Below are positions 13,421 through 25,328 of a DNA stretch of 26,942 nt, piece after piece. Location of the stretch: the IMG/VR virus record IMGVR_UViG_3300037044_000090, positions 1 to 26,942 of that record; one strand, given 5' to 3'. The stretch is from a virus (taxonomy: Duplodnaviria > Caudoviricetes). Under the pieces are notes generated by a model, which did not search any database, was not told the DNA's origin, and saw only the letters and a list, made by a program, of their open reading frames with translations. Each line of letters begins with the position of its first letter. Position 1 is the stretch's first letter. The position numbers and the translations under genes are program-made.

Positions 13421-15289
13421 TTATTGTTGATAGGCTGTGTCAACATTGGCAATCACACGCAAAAACATATTCCTGAACCAGTTTTCGAGTTGGTTTTCGT
13501 CCATCTGCTGCAGCTCTGTTTTTTGGGTGTTGATGCCACCCTTTACGAAGCTGTCAATGTTCACGGTGAGGCTTTTGGCTGGTTGTGCAGCCTGGGTTAT
13601 TTCGCCGGCTTTGTCGGGCAGTTTCTTTTCCGAACCGGCTGTATCAGACGTTGGTGTTTCGGCTGCAAAGGGGCTGTTGGCTACCTGAGCACGCTTGGCC
13701 TGGCTTTCTTTTATCAGGTCGTTTATCTCGCCAATTGATGCAGCTGCAGTGTGATATTGGGTATAGCGGTCAGGATTAAATGCCTTATAAATATTGTTTT
13801 TAAACGCTTTGTTGGCCTCGAGTTGTTCGTAAAACAAGGCGCGTCGATCCTTGGCATCAGCTATCATATCGCCATATTCGCGGTCGGTAAGGTTTTCGGG
13901 GGTGATTAGGCTAGCATGTTTATCTCTGATGTTGGATGCAGCCTCACCGGTGATGGTCTTTTTGTAATGCTCAGGTGTCATAAGCCATCTTACGGATGAA
14001 TGTACTGCTTCGGCCAGCCAGGATTTGAATGGGATCATATCCTTTCCTATTTGTGCCCACAACACACTCGTTCGGTTTTGCAATTGATCGTTGATGTAGT
14101 TTATATCATCGCGTGCAATTTTGGTAGCTTTTACAAGGCCAAGTTCGGCATTGTCGAAAGTGTCGAAAGCCGTTTTAAGGCCTTCGGTTTTGTCGGTAGC
14201 GGCCTGAATGAATGCAATAAGACCTTCGCTGCCCGTGAACTGATTTTTAAGTGCAATAACCGAACGATCATCGGTGAGGCTGCGAAACTTTTTGTTGAGC
14301 TCGATCAAAATATCATCAGCCTGGCGAAACCGTCCGTTCACGTCGTACATATTGATGCCAATGCGTTCAAAGGCCTTGATGGTTGTTTCCTTTGTGAGAT
14401 CGTTAAACAGCGATTTGGTGAGTGTCGAAGCTTCGTCAACGCTTTTAACCTTGGCTGTAAATAGTGCAAAAAGCTTGTTGGCAGTGTTAAAATTCTGGTT
14501 GGCCGATGCTGCCGATCCGGCATAAGTGCTCATCACCGATGCAATCTGATCGTAGTTCGTTACGCCCACTTTCACGGTCGCAAAAGCCGACCGGTTAAAC
14601 TCATCGAGTTTGTCGAGCCCAAAGCGGTAGTTGGCCATTGCCTTAGCAGATCCTTCGATCCACTTGTTGAAATCGGCCTGCATGAGGTTGGCAAACTCTC
14701 CTTGCTTGCGAACGATCACATCCACCTCGCGCCCATATTTGCCGGTGGCCGACTGCACATCAAAGAAAGCTGTTGAAGTGGCAGAGTGGTCAAAGCCCTT
14801 GGTGTATGCCGCGCTCATAACCATGTCTTTGAGTTGTGAGCGCTGGCCATCGGTTTTGTCAATGTTGAGCATGGCTAATTGTCGCCAAACCCCCGAAAAC
14901 CTTGCTGCCTCCTGCATTGCAGTTGAAGCGCCTTTGAATGCGACGGCAATAGCAGCTCCGGCCAGGGCAACAGGACTAGTAAGCGCGGCAAAAGCAGCTC
15001 CAAGCCCGGGTATTTTGTCGCCCAAATCGCTCAGGTGTCCTGCCCACCTGGATTTGAGTTGACCAAACTTATCGCCTAATCGGTTGAAGTGCTGACCAAC
15101 CTTGTCGAGATAACCGCGTGTCGTTTTTTCAAAGCCCGACATGTGTGTGTTGGCATTGTTTTTAAAGTCGGCCAACTGATTTTTCATCTCGCGCACGTTT
15201 TGGTTCAGGTGCTGCTTAGCCTCAGTAATGGCGGTTTTCATCCGGTTTTTAACCTCGAGCACGAGGCTAACTTTAGCTTGTCCGTCCAT
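13421..15289 (-). CDS. Tail tape measure protein (622 aa)
   Basis: Ala/Gly-rich helical protein; VKVGVTNY.QIA, IGINMYD.NG.FR...DIL.EL core motifs; C-terminal LTVNIDS. Confidence 0.8.
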   Translation of the reverse strand: MDGQAKVSLVLEVKNRMKTAITEAKQHLNQNVREMKNQLADFKNNANTHMSGFEKTTRGYLDKVGQHFNRLGDKFGQLKSRWAGHLSDLGDKIPGLGAAFAALTSPVALAGAAIAVAFKGASTAMQEAARFSGVWRQLAMLNIDKTDGQRSQLKDMVMSAAYTKGFDHSATSTAFFDVQSATGKYGREVDVIVRKQGEFANLMQADFNKWIEGSAKAMANYRFGLDKLDEFNRSAFATVKVGVTNYDQIASVMSTYAGSAASANQNFNTANKLFALFTAKVKSVDEASTLTKSLFNDLTKETTIKAFERIGINMYDVNGRFRQADDILIELNKKFRSLTDDRSVIALKNQFTGSEGLIAFIQAATDKTEGLKTAFDTFDNAELGLVKATKIARDDINYINDQLQNRTSVLWAQIGKDMIPFKSWLAEAVHSSVRWLMTPEHYKKTITGEAASNIRDKHASLITPENLTDREYGDMIADAKDRRALFYEQLEANKAFKNNIYKAFNPDRYTQYHTAAASIGEINDLIKESQAKRAQVANSPFAAETPTSDTAGSEKKLPDKAGEITQAAQPAKSLTVNIDSFVKGGINTQKTELQQMDENQLENWFRNMFLRVIANVDTAYQQ

Positions 15290-15340: not shown

Positions 15341-15403
15341 GAAAATGCCCTGAGTTGCTCCGGTTTGCAAAACCGGCACGGTGACTCAGGGTGTTTTCTT
15401 TTT
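15341..15403 (+). ncRNA. Candidate ~60-nt sRNA with tRNA-Cys(GCA) anticodon-arm mimic
   Basis: 19-bp stem (5 GU pairs, valid only on +), CAC bulge, CCGGU/ACCGG stem, loop UU-GCA-AA, then U5. Confidence 0.65.
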
Positions 15404-16534
15404 GATAAGCTTCGTAGCATCAAAGTTATCTGAGATATAGTGTATGCGAAACTCGTTGTCACGGGTCTGCATCACGTTGATATACGAATCAATACCACCA
15501 ACCTTTGTTTTGTAATAATGCCACTTGATCACGTTTGGATGCGATCCATCGTCATAGCTCCAGTCAAGATAAACAGCATCTTTCATCACATCCGGAAGTT
15601 TTTGCAGCATTGAGGCAATAATTTCGCGGTATTTATGCGGTTTGCCAAGAATTGTTTTCACGTCGCTGCGCCGAAGTGTGATATGTTTAAATTGTTCCTG
15701 AGATGATTCAAACACATAGCCTTTTTCCTGGTTCACATGTTTTTTTGTCCAGACTTTGGCCTGATCTATTGTAACACGATGCTGCAGCCTGATGGCTTGC
15801 TTTAAAACATCGTCCGGAATGCCAATGTAGTAAGGGTGTTGCTTTGGATAGATCATCCCTGTTTTAGCCAGGTTGGTTTTGAACATCGAATTGATTGGCA
15901 CATCGGGTACTGAAGCTGTTTTGGTATGCTTCTTCCCTGCTTGTTGCCGTGCATTGCAACGACACCTCCACCCATTTGGAGGGTAATAGGTATCCCAAAA
16001 CGGATCGTCTATTTCTGCGGTAATTCCATCGAGCAACTCGTGATCAGGGCGTACGCGTTTGTCGCCGACAGTTTCGTAAGTTAACCACGGGTTGGCTTCG
16101 GCCCTGCTCATAAACTCCTGCCAGCGTGCCGACATGGTTGCCGACCCTATTGCGTGGTCGTATTCTGTTAGCAGCCAGTTCTTGTTGTAGGTTGCATCTA
16201 TTTTTCTGACAGCCTCCTCAAAATCGGCAAACGACCTTGTTTTGCCCTGATCGTCCTTGAGTGCAAGGGTGATATCGCGCAGTTGCTGGTAGTCTTTAGC
16301 TACAGAAAATGACCAGGTGTCGCGTGTGAGCCGGGCAAGCATTGCGGCGTCAGGAGTTGTGTAGTCAACCGATAAAAGTGTTTGTCCATAGCCATCGGTC
16401 ACAGCATCGCCAAGCTTGCGCTGGTAGGTTCTTGCAATTGCGGATGAGTCGATAGTATGTTTGCGTTCATACACATCTTTTGCAAGGCTAAGAACGAGTT
16501 GTTCTAATTCATTGCTGTTGGCAGCAGTTGCCAC
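15386..16534 (-). CDS. MuF/SPP1 gp7 minor head protein with C-terminal probable BECR-fold (LPD3/PBECR-like) RNase domain
   Basis: YETVGDKRVRPDH..LDG, DDPFW..YYPPNGWRCRC, F..N..KTG.I....HPY; ~120-aa extension with KPH...L.KLPDVMKDAVY...WHYYK...YINV...F.IHYISD. Confidence 0.85.
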   Translation of the reverse strand: MATAANSNELEQLVLSLAKDVYERKHTIDSSAIARTYQRKLGDAVTDGYGQTLLSVDYTTPDAAMLARLTRDTWSFSVAKDYQQLRDITLALKDDQGKTRSFADFEEAVRKIDATYNKNWLLTEYDHAIGSATMSARWQEFMSRAEANPWLTYETVGDKRVRPDHELLDGITAEIDDPFWDTYYPPNGWRCRCNARQQAGKKHTKTASVPDVPINSMFKTNLAKTGMIYPKQHPYYIGIPDDVLKQAIRLQHRVTIDQAKVWTKKHVNQEKGYVFESSQEQFKHITLRRSDVKTILGKPHKYREIIASMLQKLPDVMKDAVYLDWSYDDGSHPNVIKWHYYKTKVGGIDSYINVMQTRDNEFRIHYISDNFDATKLIKKKTP

Positions 16535-16579
16535 CGGATGAAAACCGCCGCAACACTGACAAGGCTCATAAAGTTGAAT

Positions 16580-16621
16580 GGGATCGGCCTTGGCCTTTGG
16601 GACAATCCCTATCGAAAATTT
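16580..16621 (-). other. Candidate -1 ribosomal frameshift site portal to MuF
   Basis: A-AAU-UUU at 16621-16615, 5-nt spacer, stem GGGAUUG/CGAUCCC; -1 frame open into MuF. Confidence 0.65.
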
Positions 16622-17853
16622 TGCCAGAGGCTCTTCGGTTGTGTCGGTTCTTGTATTTGAGCCTGTTTTTCACGTGGCTTGACAATAGGAATGTTGAAAG
16701 TTTCGCCCACCCAGTTTTGATTAATCTCATAGTGATTCAATGCTGCATTGACAATGTTCCAGTGATCCTTGAGTGTGAGATCCTCGCTGCGGTCGAATAT
16801 AAACTCATCATCATCTGTAAAAGCAAAACCATGACTTGCAAGCAGCGGTATAACAGTGTCATTGACAAAGAACTCGATTGACATTCTGTCGTTTTCGGAT
16901 ATCTTGTAGTCCAATGTGCGCTCGTGCACTTCGGACTGGCTTCGTGAGCTGCCATTGTCGGTGAGCATTGTGCCGCCGAGCAGACGTTTTGATATCTCCT
17001 CATTGGCTGTTTTTATCTGTTCCTGGAACACTTTGTAGGGGTCGCCTTTGGTGGCCTGATCGTGAATGGTGATCACCGTTCCTTCGGGCAGCACGGCCTG
17101 CGCACTTTGACCCAATGCCTTAAGCATTGTTTCAATGCGGTCGAGCTGTTGTTTGTCGGTTTTGTTCGTTGTGGCAGTGATGAGTGGAACGCCATATCGC
17201 TCACTAAAATCAGCCCATGTTTGCTGCGCGTTCCTTTTCCAAATGAGTTGCGGTATCACGTCGTTGAGCAGGCCAAAGTAGTCATCTGGAGAAAACTCAA
17301 TCACATGATCTTTAAAGGCGGGGTTTTTGTAGTCGGCAAATTTATCGCCAAACACTTCAAAATAAATTCTGCCAAGTTGTGGAGCAATGTTTCTTCGCGG
17401 AATGACAGACCATTTCATAGTGAGCGGATCAACGAGCTCGAGCACTGTATATCCTCTCAGGAAAGCATCAAAAGAGCTTGCAAGAATTTTATGAAACCAG
17501 GCCTTGTGTAATAGGCTGGTTTTTTCGGGCACTTCTTTGCCTGTTTTTTTGCTGCGTACAATAAACCTGTTTGATAGGGTTGCAGCCTTACGCACCTGAA
17601 TTGTAGCCTTCAGGTGGCCATCAGTCATCAGGTTATCAACTAAGTCCTGGTATGGTGCCCAGCGCGGATTTTCCGGATTATCGGCTGTGGTAAGTGCTTT
17701 TCTCCATTTCTGTATATCAGCCCTGCTTCTATCTGTAAATTCCTTTGCAAGACCCATAATGATTGCCTTGTCCTGCTTTTTAAGCGTTGTTGCCGGTTGT
17801 GCTTGAGAAATAAACCCAAACTCCCAATTTTTTTGTCCTATTGAAATTTTCAT
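16609..17853 (-). CDS. Portal protein (DUF935 / Mu gp29-like)
   Basis: D.HL..TI..RK, W..F.ERYGVP, ANEEISK.LLG.TMLTDNGSS.SQSEVH. Confidence 0.9.
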   Translation of the reverse strand: MKISIGQKNWEFGFISQAQPATTLKKQDKAIIMGLAKEFTDRSRADIQKWRKALTTADNPENPRWAPYQDLVDNLMTDGHLKATIQVRKAATLSNRFIVRSKKTGKEVPEKTSLLHKAWFHKILASSFDAFLRGYTVLELVDPLTMKWSVIPRRNIAPQLGRIYFEVFGDKFADYKNPAFKDHVIEFSPDDYFGLLNDVIPQLIWKRNAQQTWADFSERYGVPLITATTNKTDKQQLDRIETMLKALGQSAQAVLPEGTVITIHDQATKGDPYKVFQEQIKTANEEISKRLLGGTMLTDNGSSRSQSEVHERTLDYKISENDRMSIEFFVNDTVIPLLASHGFAFTDDDEFIFDRSEDLTLKDHWNIVNAALNHYEINQNWVGETFNIPIVKPREKQAQIQEPTQPKSLWQNFR

Positions 17854-24768: not shown

Positions 24769-25113
24769 ATGAAGAAAGATCAGATAACATTGCCGCAGGG
24801 CGTTACCGCAGAAATGGTTGCAGCCTGGAAGGAGCAGTTTGGTGCCGACAAAGTGAGGTTAGCCGAATTACCTCTGGATGATCAGGGCGAAAAAGTGATT
24901 GAAGTGGTTGTGCGTGTTCCAGGTCGAAAAGAACTTGGAGAGTTTGAAAAGTGGCTTGATCGAAACCCCGATAAAGCAAAGGAGATTTTGGTGAATGCCT
25001 GTCTTCTGACCAGAAAAGAAGAAGTGAAAGCCCAGGACGATTTGTTTCTGGCTGCATTTGATGCTATCAGCCAACTGTTGCCTATAAGAAAGGCTATCAT
25101 AAAAAACTTATAG
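24769..25113 (+). CDS. Tail assembly chaperone (G)
   Basis: After tube; ends in IKNL with slippery A-AAA-AAC. Confidence 0.75.
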   Translation: MKKDQITLPQGVTAEMVAAWKEQFGADKVRLAELPLDDQGEKVIEVVVRVPGRKELGEFEKWLDRNPDKAKEILVNACLLTRKEEVKAQDDLFLAAFDAISQLLPIRKAIIKNL

Positions 25114-25328
25114 AAGACTATCCTTCGATTGATGTCAATATTGATGAGGATAGTCTGCAACGACAGCACAGCAATTTTATCCGCAAAGGGAATGCCTTGA
25201 TAAGCTTTTATTTAGGCATTCCATTTCCGGAGATTTTAGATGATGAAACTTGGTTTGAAAAATACAGACAATTAGAATGGCTATCAGCCAGCGGAGTGTT
25301 AGGAACTAAAAAAAATGGCAGAGTTTAA
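25101..25328 (+). CDS. -1 frameshift extension of tail chaperone (GT)
   Basis: -1 frame open from 25107 to TAA 25326-25328 with no ATG: LIEDYP...GNALISFYLGIPFPEILDDETWFEKYRQLEWL... Confidence 0.75.
   Translation, partial: KKLIEDYPSIDVNIDEDSLQRQHSNFIRKGNALISFYLGIPFPEILDDETWFEKYRQLEWLSASGVLGTKKNGRV

Follow-up and report, generated by a model that had tools for sequence, protein, structure and literature searches.

The window analysed here, a 26,942-nucleotide (nt) stretch of viral DNA (IMG/VR record IMGVR_UViG_3300037044_000090), carries on its minus strand a Mu-type portal gene and, after it, a reading frame for a MuF domain with a C-terminal cargo domain; the subject of this work is the junction between the two. 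The window phage shows the traits tested for a Winoviridae-like transposable phage of Bacteroidota, encoding a Mu-type transposase and a transposition protein (PHROG 310 and 296), a terminase, a Clp-type head protease, a major head protein, a sheath and a tape measure, with divergent protease and terminase-portal-MuF arms in a gene order that is that of Flavobacterium phage fF4. Its portal, the one protein compared, matches those of cultured phages at 40.8% at best.

The portal open reading frame (ORF) ends in CAA AAT TTT CGA TAG, and the -1 frame, which runs without a stop from 16669 to 15386, is the MuF frame. Based on this arrangement and comparisons to relatives, we propose that a -1 slip at the in-phase heptamer A AAU UUU, with the stem that follows it, very probably yields both a 414-amino-acid (aa) portal and a portal-MuF-cargo fusion with a predicted length of 822 aa (~94 kDa). 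An earlier sequence-only reading of this DNA had pointed out the heptamer, a 5-nt spacer, a 7-bp stem and the open -1 frame, all of which lie in the window where it had placed them. Its remark that the predicted start of the MuF frame is only a GTG also holds, as the first near-cognate start is GTG 16534, and the first ATG (16342) lies 93 codons past the heptamer, well inside the conserved region. A second in-phase heptamer is located within the window portal, at 17833.

The junction in split relatives

Five scans retrieved 320 loci, giving 321 rows with the window: 206 in which portal and MuF are split with MuF in the -1 frame, 85 in which they are fused, 12 split in +1 and 2 split in frame 0, the rest comprising 15 rows where MuF is out of reach and 1 whose portal is cut. 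Removal of identical junctions left 204 rows, including 117 split in -1 (Bacteroidota Mu-like phages); portals with the split layout are 39-91% identical. In 111 of the 117 distinct split junctions, exactly one codon separates a strict in-phase heptamer from the portal stop, the same placement as in 8/8 of the first relatives examined. It reads A AAT TTT in 89, A AAT TTC in 12, T TTT TTC in 9 and G GGT TTT in 1 and, since these four strict heptamers code N-F, G-F or F-F, it is the X XXY YYZ pattern that is kept and not the peptide. The background frequency is 279 in 71,797 portal codons (0.39% per codon), and the heptamer precedes 0/102 stops of upstream genes. From the heptamer into MuF, the -1 frame is open in 117/117 split junctions; upstream of the heptamer it closes at a median of ~15 codons (first 94 loci), and overlap is therefore needed only from the heptamer onward. 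This comparison of junctions, which the sequence-only reading had suggested as a check, lends strong comparative support to its proposal of a programmed -1 frameshift between portal and MuF.

The RNA downstream of the heptamer shows a family-wide tendency to fold. In 70 representatives that are <80% alike over 50 nt, the best stem is separated from the heptamer by 5 nt in 48 and by 6 nt in 10. The 5' stem arm pairs better with its own downstream sequence than with swapped ones (20.9 vs 13.0), a comparison of own and swapped arms that tests covariation without an alignment, and the mean folding z-score of split junctions is -2.90 vs -0.41 and -0.35 in control windows upstream and further downstream, respectively. 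In the window, stem 1 (Table 1) has a predicted 2-bp extension joining 16601-16600 with 16589-16588. The loop of the stem may in turn pair with sequence further downstream, and a second AAGGC copy in 16592-16587 is an alternative loop partner for the predicted stem 2 of the window. Across 58 representatives with loops of >=9 nt, loop-to-downstream pairing scores 12.8 vs 11.4 +/- 0.3 after permutation, with 0/5000 permutations as high and relatedness uncontrolled. The pairs vary by locus (GGGC/GCCC, ACGGC/GCCGT, AATGG/CCATT, GGGTG/CACCC, GCGGA/TCCGC and GCGCA/TGCGC, with AAGGC/GCCTT in the window), and such pairing is absent in the short-loop U-run subgroup. This modest effect suggests an H-type pseudoknot in much of the split family, and the stimulator may thus be a pseudoknot, a possibility that the sequence-only reading had overlooked.

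Many split loci lack an obvious independent start for MuF. From -20 to +45 codons around the site there is no ATG in 83/115 split loci and no ATG, GTG or TTG in 31/115, two A-run loci being left out of these counts. The Tyr of the conserved linker motif is invariant in 60/60 aligned -1 frames, LYEPC is encoded by 20 different synonymous codon strings across 32 loci, and the CxxC is present in 64/115 relatives. At the level of sequence, selection acts on residues of the -1 frame upstream of any usable start. As a negative control, distant relatives (27-31% identity) have a start codon at the portal stop in 25/25 cases, with all three frame offsets represented. In this distant group (L373-L407) MuF begins M-C-G-Y-C, hence the CxxC marks the MuF N-terminus even without a frameshift.

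Table 1 Features of the portal-MuF junction and of its predicted products in the window
Feature	Position	Strand	Basis or remark
Portal gene (Mu gp29 type), 414 aa, 0-frame product	16609..17853	-	Pfam PF06074 Portal_Mu E 1.5e-64; PHROG 113 portal
In-phase slippery heptamer A AAU UUU, one codon before portal stop	16615..16621	-	sequence and relatives
5-nt spacer CGATA: last portal codon and first two bases of the UAG stop	16610..16614	-	sequence
Stimulator stem 1: 16609-16603 (GGGATTG) with 16586-16580 (CGATCCC)	16580..16609	-	7 bp, one U-G; fold
Predicted pseudoknot stem 2: loop AAGGC 16597-16593 with GCCUU(G) 16565-16560	16560..16597	-	complementarity
Conserved linker motif LYEPCxxCGGxH	16538..16573	-	upstream of the GTG used by gene callers
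-1 frame (linker, MuF and cargo), 411 codons from heptamer	15386..16621	-	would add 409 aa to portal
MuF (gp30 / SPP1 gp7-like) core	15950..16231	-	Pfam PF04233 E 2.3e-16, residues 131-224
C-terminal cargo, LPD3-type domain, predicted BECR-like RNase fold	15400..15763	-	Pfam PF18798 E 1.8e-7

Fused relatives and exchange at the junction

Relatives with a long portal number at least 209 proteins; among the 120 listed, 119 carry MuF and 119 have PBECR2 labels. The junction peptides of these 120 read NF then K/N in 53, S/G/F-F then K/N in 16 and KKK in 37, with 14 other or unparsed. The codons of K and N share AA, and the DNA accounts for the pattern: AA comes directly after every in-phase A AAT TTT of the fused junctions (18/18), as compared to 279/2,281 TTT codons in portal cores (12%), so that a -1 slip would meet UAA at once. 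A hairpin is present at the same spacing (z -2.29 vs -0.11 and -0.35; 16 representatives). Hence, the fused relatives appear to carry the same signal in opposite polarity, which the sequence-only reading had overlooked.

Among 67 distinct fused junctions, 21 are of this heptamer type (18 strict, 3 near-heptamers) and 36 of an A-run type with a run of 9-11 A and no hairpin, and a candidate truncating signal is present in 57/67 fused genes. Only 2 other A9-A11 runs occur in 212,861 nt of the fused loci. The distances to stops after the A runs are short, as AT-rich DNA gives by chance, and provide no evidence. A-run junctions are found also in split layouts (L038, L055, L065, fF4 and Peternella_1). 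Separately, L230-L232, L240, L073, L235 and L236 show an in-phase G GGA AAG/AAA or A AAA AAG with a -1 stop ~6 codons on, Lys-type heptamers that possibly represent a third truncating signal.

Split and fused layouts interleave on the portal tree and swap at the junction. In this tree of 139 rows, built with a quick method and without inference of a root, the split label requires 7 changes and the fused-heptamer label 9, strongly supported branches imposing at least 7 of the latter. L107 (fused) and L110 (split) share 91% identity over 1,845 nt, up to ~25 nt before the L107 heptamer, and diverge from there, i.e. signal and cargo have been swapped as one module. PBECR2 is found in 40/40 fused genes scanned (21/21 of the heptamer type and 19 of the 34 A-run type listed), a label favoured by the fact that some fused loci were fetched with a PBECR2-bearing query; the cargo of 60 split relatives scanned gives PBECR2 in 0/60, CdiA_C in 36/60 and LPD3 in 2/60. 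Near position 4230 of L091, a tape-measure-like gene directly follows the portal without MuF and without heptamer, signal and cargo being lost together.

The junction is represented also in cultured phages. Hankyphage p00 (Bacteroides phage p00, L326) has T TTT TTC and a hairpin at portal codon 448/462, with the -1 frame open into the next gene. This phage is widespread in the gut and a convenient test case. Elizabethkingia phage TCUEAP3 similarly has T TTT TTC and a hairpin near the portal end and a -1 frame open into the next gene. P. gingivalis phage007 combines this heptamer and hairpin with an in-frame portal-MuF fusion, and a stop ends its -1 frame after 21 codons. The heptamer/hairpin signal is missing from Flavobacterium phages lotta8-1 and FPSV-S1, where MuF has an ordinary ATG start.

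A subgroup of Flavobacteriales (L057, L060, L063, L071, L077, L082, L087, L088, L138 and L328-L351) is arranged differently. Here the portal ends W-x-R/K-P-D-Y-x-stop, a motif that is the linker in fused relatives, and MuF lies in +1; the subgroup counts 9 junctions in one set and 13, partly overlapping, in another. An ATG is present upstream in the MuF frame in 9/9 examined, and that N-terminus is also the beginning of a separate MuF in two relatives. The layout may reflect either a +1 frameshift at the stop, which we first suspected and then set aside, or an overlapping start.

The cargo domain and other genes of the window

The model of the -1 product, computed from 104 sequences, has a mean predicted local distance difference test (pLDDT) score of 91 except for residues 1-33, the low-confidence part being the linker with its Cys motif, a candidate metal binder in the sequence-only reading; a single-sequence fold of the cargo (pLDDT 44) was not used. 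The cargo fold matches BrnT, two CdiA C-terminal domains, colicin D tRNase and MqsR at weak Z of 4.6-5.4, and the five of the top-50 fold matches that are confined to the cargo domain are all ribonuclease (RNase) toxins or CdiA C-terminal domains. A Foldseek search with the confident cargo model returned no match at E <= 0.001. Cargo homologues were collected with a word-based search (1 protein) and with HMMER (61). His329 (15637-15635) is kept in 59/69 homologue rows; Ser397 is S/T in 41/68, and position 395, Tyr here, is S/A/C in 62/68.

Modelling and conservation suggest that the cargo is likely an RNase. The sequence-only reading had described a MuF-RNase toxin, of which the RNase part remains a fair lead, given the weak concordant BECR fold matches and His329, and the toxin part finds no support, as there is no room for an immunity gene. 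No immunity ORF was found downstream of MuF: the tape-measure gene begins 96 nt after the stop, with no ORF in between. The window does show the MuF polymorphic toxin trait of a MuF domain downstream of the portal with a variable C-terminal domain; since no immunity gene follows, we do not class its cargo as a MuF toxin.

The tape-measure gene (13421-15289, minus strand) lies directly after MuF, on the opposite strand to the sheath, tube and chaperone genes, and a tape-measure gene is located <=200 nt after MuF in 32/117 split and 38/67 fused relatives. The window holds a second candidate -1 site in the region 24769-25328 (plus strand), where the gene that follows the tail tube gene ends A AAA AAC UUA UAG; its heptamer (25101-25107) is followed 7 nt later by a strong hairpin (z -3.92), and the -1 frame is open for 75 codons. 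This is likely an ordinary tail-assembly-chaperone frameshift, the chaperone label being inferred from position.

Proposed mechanism, alternatives and relation to known systems

We propose that the junction operates as follows. With the stem or pseudoknot as stimulator, the Asn and Phe tRNAs would slip in tandem by -1 on A AAU UUU, and two products would arise from one start, a 48-kDa portal and a 94-kDa fusion. The signal, its phase, spacing and conservation, the covariation of the stem and the open -1 frame are properties of the sequences themselves. The portal ring is dodecameric, with the C-terminus facing the capsid interior. If both products enter the ring, the slip rate would set the cargo copy number, a step that we regard as reasonably probable, and it is plausible that fusions make up a minority of portal subunits in the window layout. 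In the fused relatives, the signal at the same junction would instead truncate, via the heptamer and hairpin into an immediate UAA or via the run of 9-11 A. As fused genes keep a truncating signal, the conserved need is likely a mix of short and long portal subunits, and recoding likely gives a short portal and a portal-cargo fusion in either gene layout. The short:long ratios in split and fused phages may be similar or opposite, depending on slip efficiencies. More broadly, we lean slightly towards a scenario in which Bacteroidota Mu-like phages build mixed portal rings via interchangeable recoding modules at one junction, which travel with the cargo. These modules would comprise a -1 slip into the cargo, a -1 slip out into a stop and A-run slippage in either direction, and would set the number of nuclease copies tethered to the portal, CdiA-type on split and PBECR2 on fused genes.

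Several observations weigh against this mechanism. As the counted loci are related, their numbers do not represent independent events. In E. coli, A AAU UUU is a weak slippery heptamer. Taken alone, the window hairpin is unremarkable (z -1.74, with 13/200 shuffles folding as well, and a weaker z in longer windows), and the case therefore rests on the relatives. Of the split junctions, 6/117 are non-strict (4 near-heptamers, 2 with A runs), and 10/67 fused genes belong to neither the heptamer nor the A-run type, although in 7 of them visual inspection reveals G GGA AAR or A AAA AAG in phase. L090 and L185 have the signal with MuF further on in another frame; these loci look broken or misassembled and are counted in other classes. 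Finally, in Hankyphage p00 the gene after the portal has a coupled ATG as well, and some ATG, GTG or TTG is in range in 84/115 split loci, from which additional independent MuF initiation may take place.

A stronger version of this last point holds that MuF is made separately from GTG 16534 or another non-AUG start by coupling, with the stem regulating coupling or mRNA decay and the heptamer incidental. The presence of that GTG, the nearby start codons just mentioned and the separate MuF starts of lotta8-1, FPSV-S1 and the L373-L407 group are in line with this view, which we nevertheless consider improbable: it leaves unexplained why four different heptamers keep one phase and spacing, why the residues encoded before the GTG include an invariant Tyr and an LYEPC written in synonymous codons, why fused genes carry the same signal, and how the 31/115 loci that lack a usable start would make MuF. 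Alternatively, the frame may be changed at the window site by slippage of RNA polymerase and not of the ribosome, the A9-A11 runs without hairpin at the same junction in relatives (36 fused loci; phages fF4 and Peternella_1) being compatible with polymerase slippage there. We judge this very improbable for the window, which holds only A4-T4; the signal keeps phase with the codons, and in 58/70 representatives a stem follows at a distance typical of ribosomal frameshifting. The split layout could also stem from misassembly or from damage to a fused gene, to which we assign a negligible probability even though nearly all of the 120 listed long relatives are in-frame portal-MuF-PBECR2 fusions. 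The same layout recurs in 117 distinct junctions, and no frame-changing indel was found at the junction in contigs of the three independent runs covering it (X4, X5 and X6), the sole gap in X6, from a relative ~8% different, being an in-frame 9-nt insertion downstream; an assembly indel is accordingly rejected. The sequence-only reading had named stops in the linker or heptamer loss in relatives, an independent MuF start and an assembly indel as results that would tell against it, and none appeared.

A different objection concerns stoichiometry and does not compete with the frameshift itself. The fusion could be cleaved or never enter the portal ring, recoding then setting only the MuF:portal ratio. 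Residues 1-33 of the -1 product, modelled with low confidence, could serve as a cleavable linker, and the phage encodes a Clp-type head protease. On the other hand, a covalent tether fits SPP1 gp7 (MuF), which is bound to the portal at 1-2 copies per capsid (as cited in a passage of PMC5576092), and the truncating signal kept in fused genes suggests that short subunits are needed beside long ones. We therefore regard cleavage or exclusion from the ring as possible but rather unlikely, and prefer the mixed ring of short and extended portal subunits.

The proposed frameshift has counterparts in other structural genes. The tail assembly chaperone -1 frameshift of double-stranded DNA phages (lambda gpG/gpGT), reportedly described by Xu, Hendrix and Duda in 2004 (a study cited in PMC7302621), likewise has a heptamer near the end of a structural gene and short and extended products at a set ratio; here the gene pair is portal and MuF, the extension is an enzyme-like cargo, and relatives show both polarities. 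T7 gp10A/10B, Lactobacillus phage A2 and Listeria phage PSA have capsid or tail proteins extended C-terminally by frameshifting. As in these cases, some subunits of an oligomeric virion protein would bear an extra domain, but they extend capsid or tail-tube subunits with surface domains, whereas here the portal would be extended with a predicted internal cargo. The E. coli dnaX frameshift gives the truncated gamma product. The fused relatives resemble dnaX in having a heptamer and stem-loop in a long ORF, where a shift to a stop would give a short subunit of the same complex; they differ in that the heptamer is A AAU UUU, not A AAA AAG, and the window itself has the opposite polarity. The dnaX -1 frameshift signal is described in PMC7026636.

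In the full-text literature, with subscription journals largely outside coverage, we found no report of recoding at the portal/MuF junction. The relevant passages of PMC5576092, PMC7302621, PMC11699363, PMC10367356 and PMC8008677, and likewise of PMC6199706, PMC7026636, PMC5512222 and PMC10274946, present static portal-MuF(-PBECR) fusions only. Such portal-MuF and portal-MuF-PBECR fusions (PMC5512222; clusters EA and EB in PMC7302621) have the same domain order as the long product proposed here; in those passages they are described as single fixed proteins without recoding, in contrast to the candidate truncating signal in most fused genes of our set. As in the MuF polymorphic toxins treated in PMC5576092 and PMC11699363 (Bxa, Apk2), the window MuF lies just after the portal and has a variable C-terminal domain; those toxins are stand-alone MuF proteins followed by immunity genes, whereas the window MuF has neither a good start nor a downstream immunity gene. 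The nearest published hint consists of remarks on PRFect, where the passages concerned list 'MuF-like' among predicted, unannotated frameshift genes of actinobacteriophages and note that frameshifting may be used in certain genomes by genes that are fused elsewhere.

In conclusion, the recoding signal at this junction appears real and family-wide, and the most surprising part is that the junction seems to combine two polarities and two mechanisms, one site thereby offering a natural experiment on the evolution of recoding. Since Hankyphage p00, TCUEAP3, P. gingivalis phage007, fF4 and Peternella_1, which are cultured or inducible, all carry the signal, it is directly testable. If the frameshift is confirmed, prophage annotation would change, either through miscalled MuF starts or through a hidden short form of fused portals, and, if mixed rings are built, many annotated 840-aa 'portal-MuF fusion' genes would encode two proteins. 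The portal would then be added to the few phage proteins of which recoding gives two lengths. This would offer an explanation of how phages with a single portal-MuF gene avoid a 45-kDa cargo on every portal subunit, and suggests a way of controlling the dose of enzymes packaged in the head alongside the DNA.

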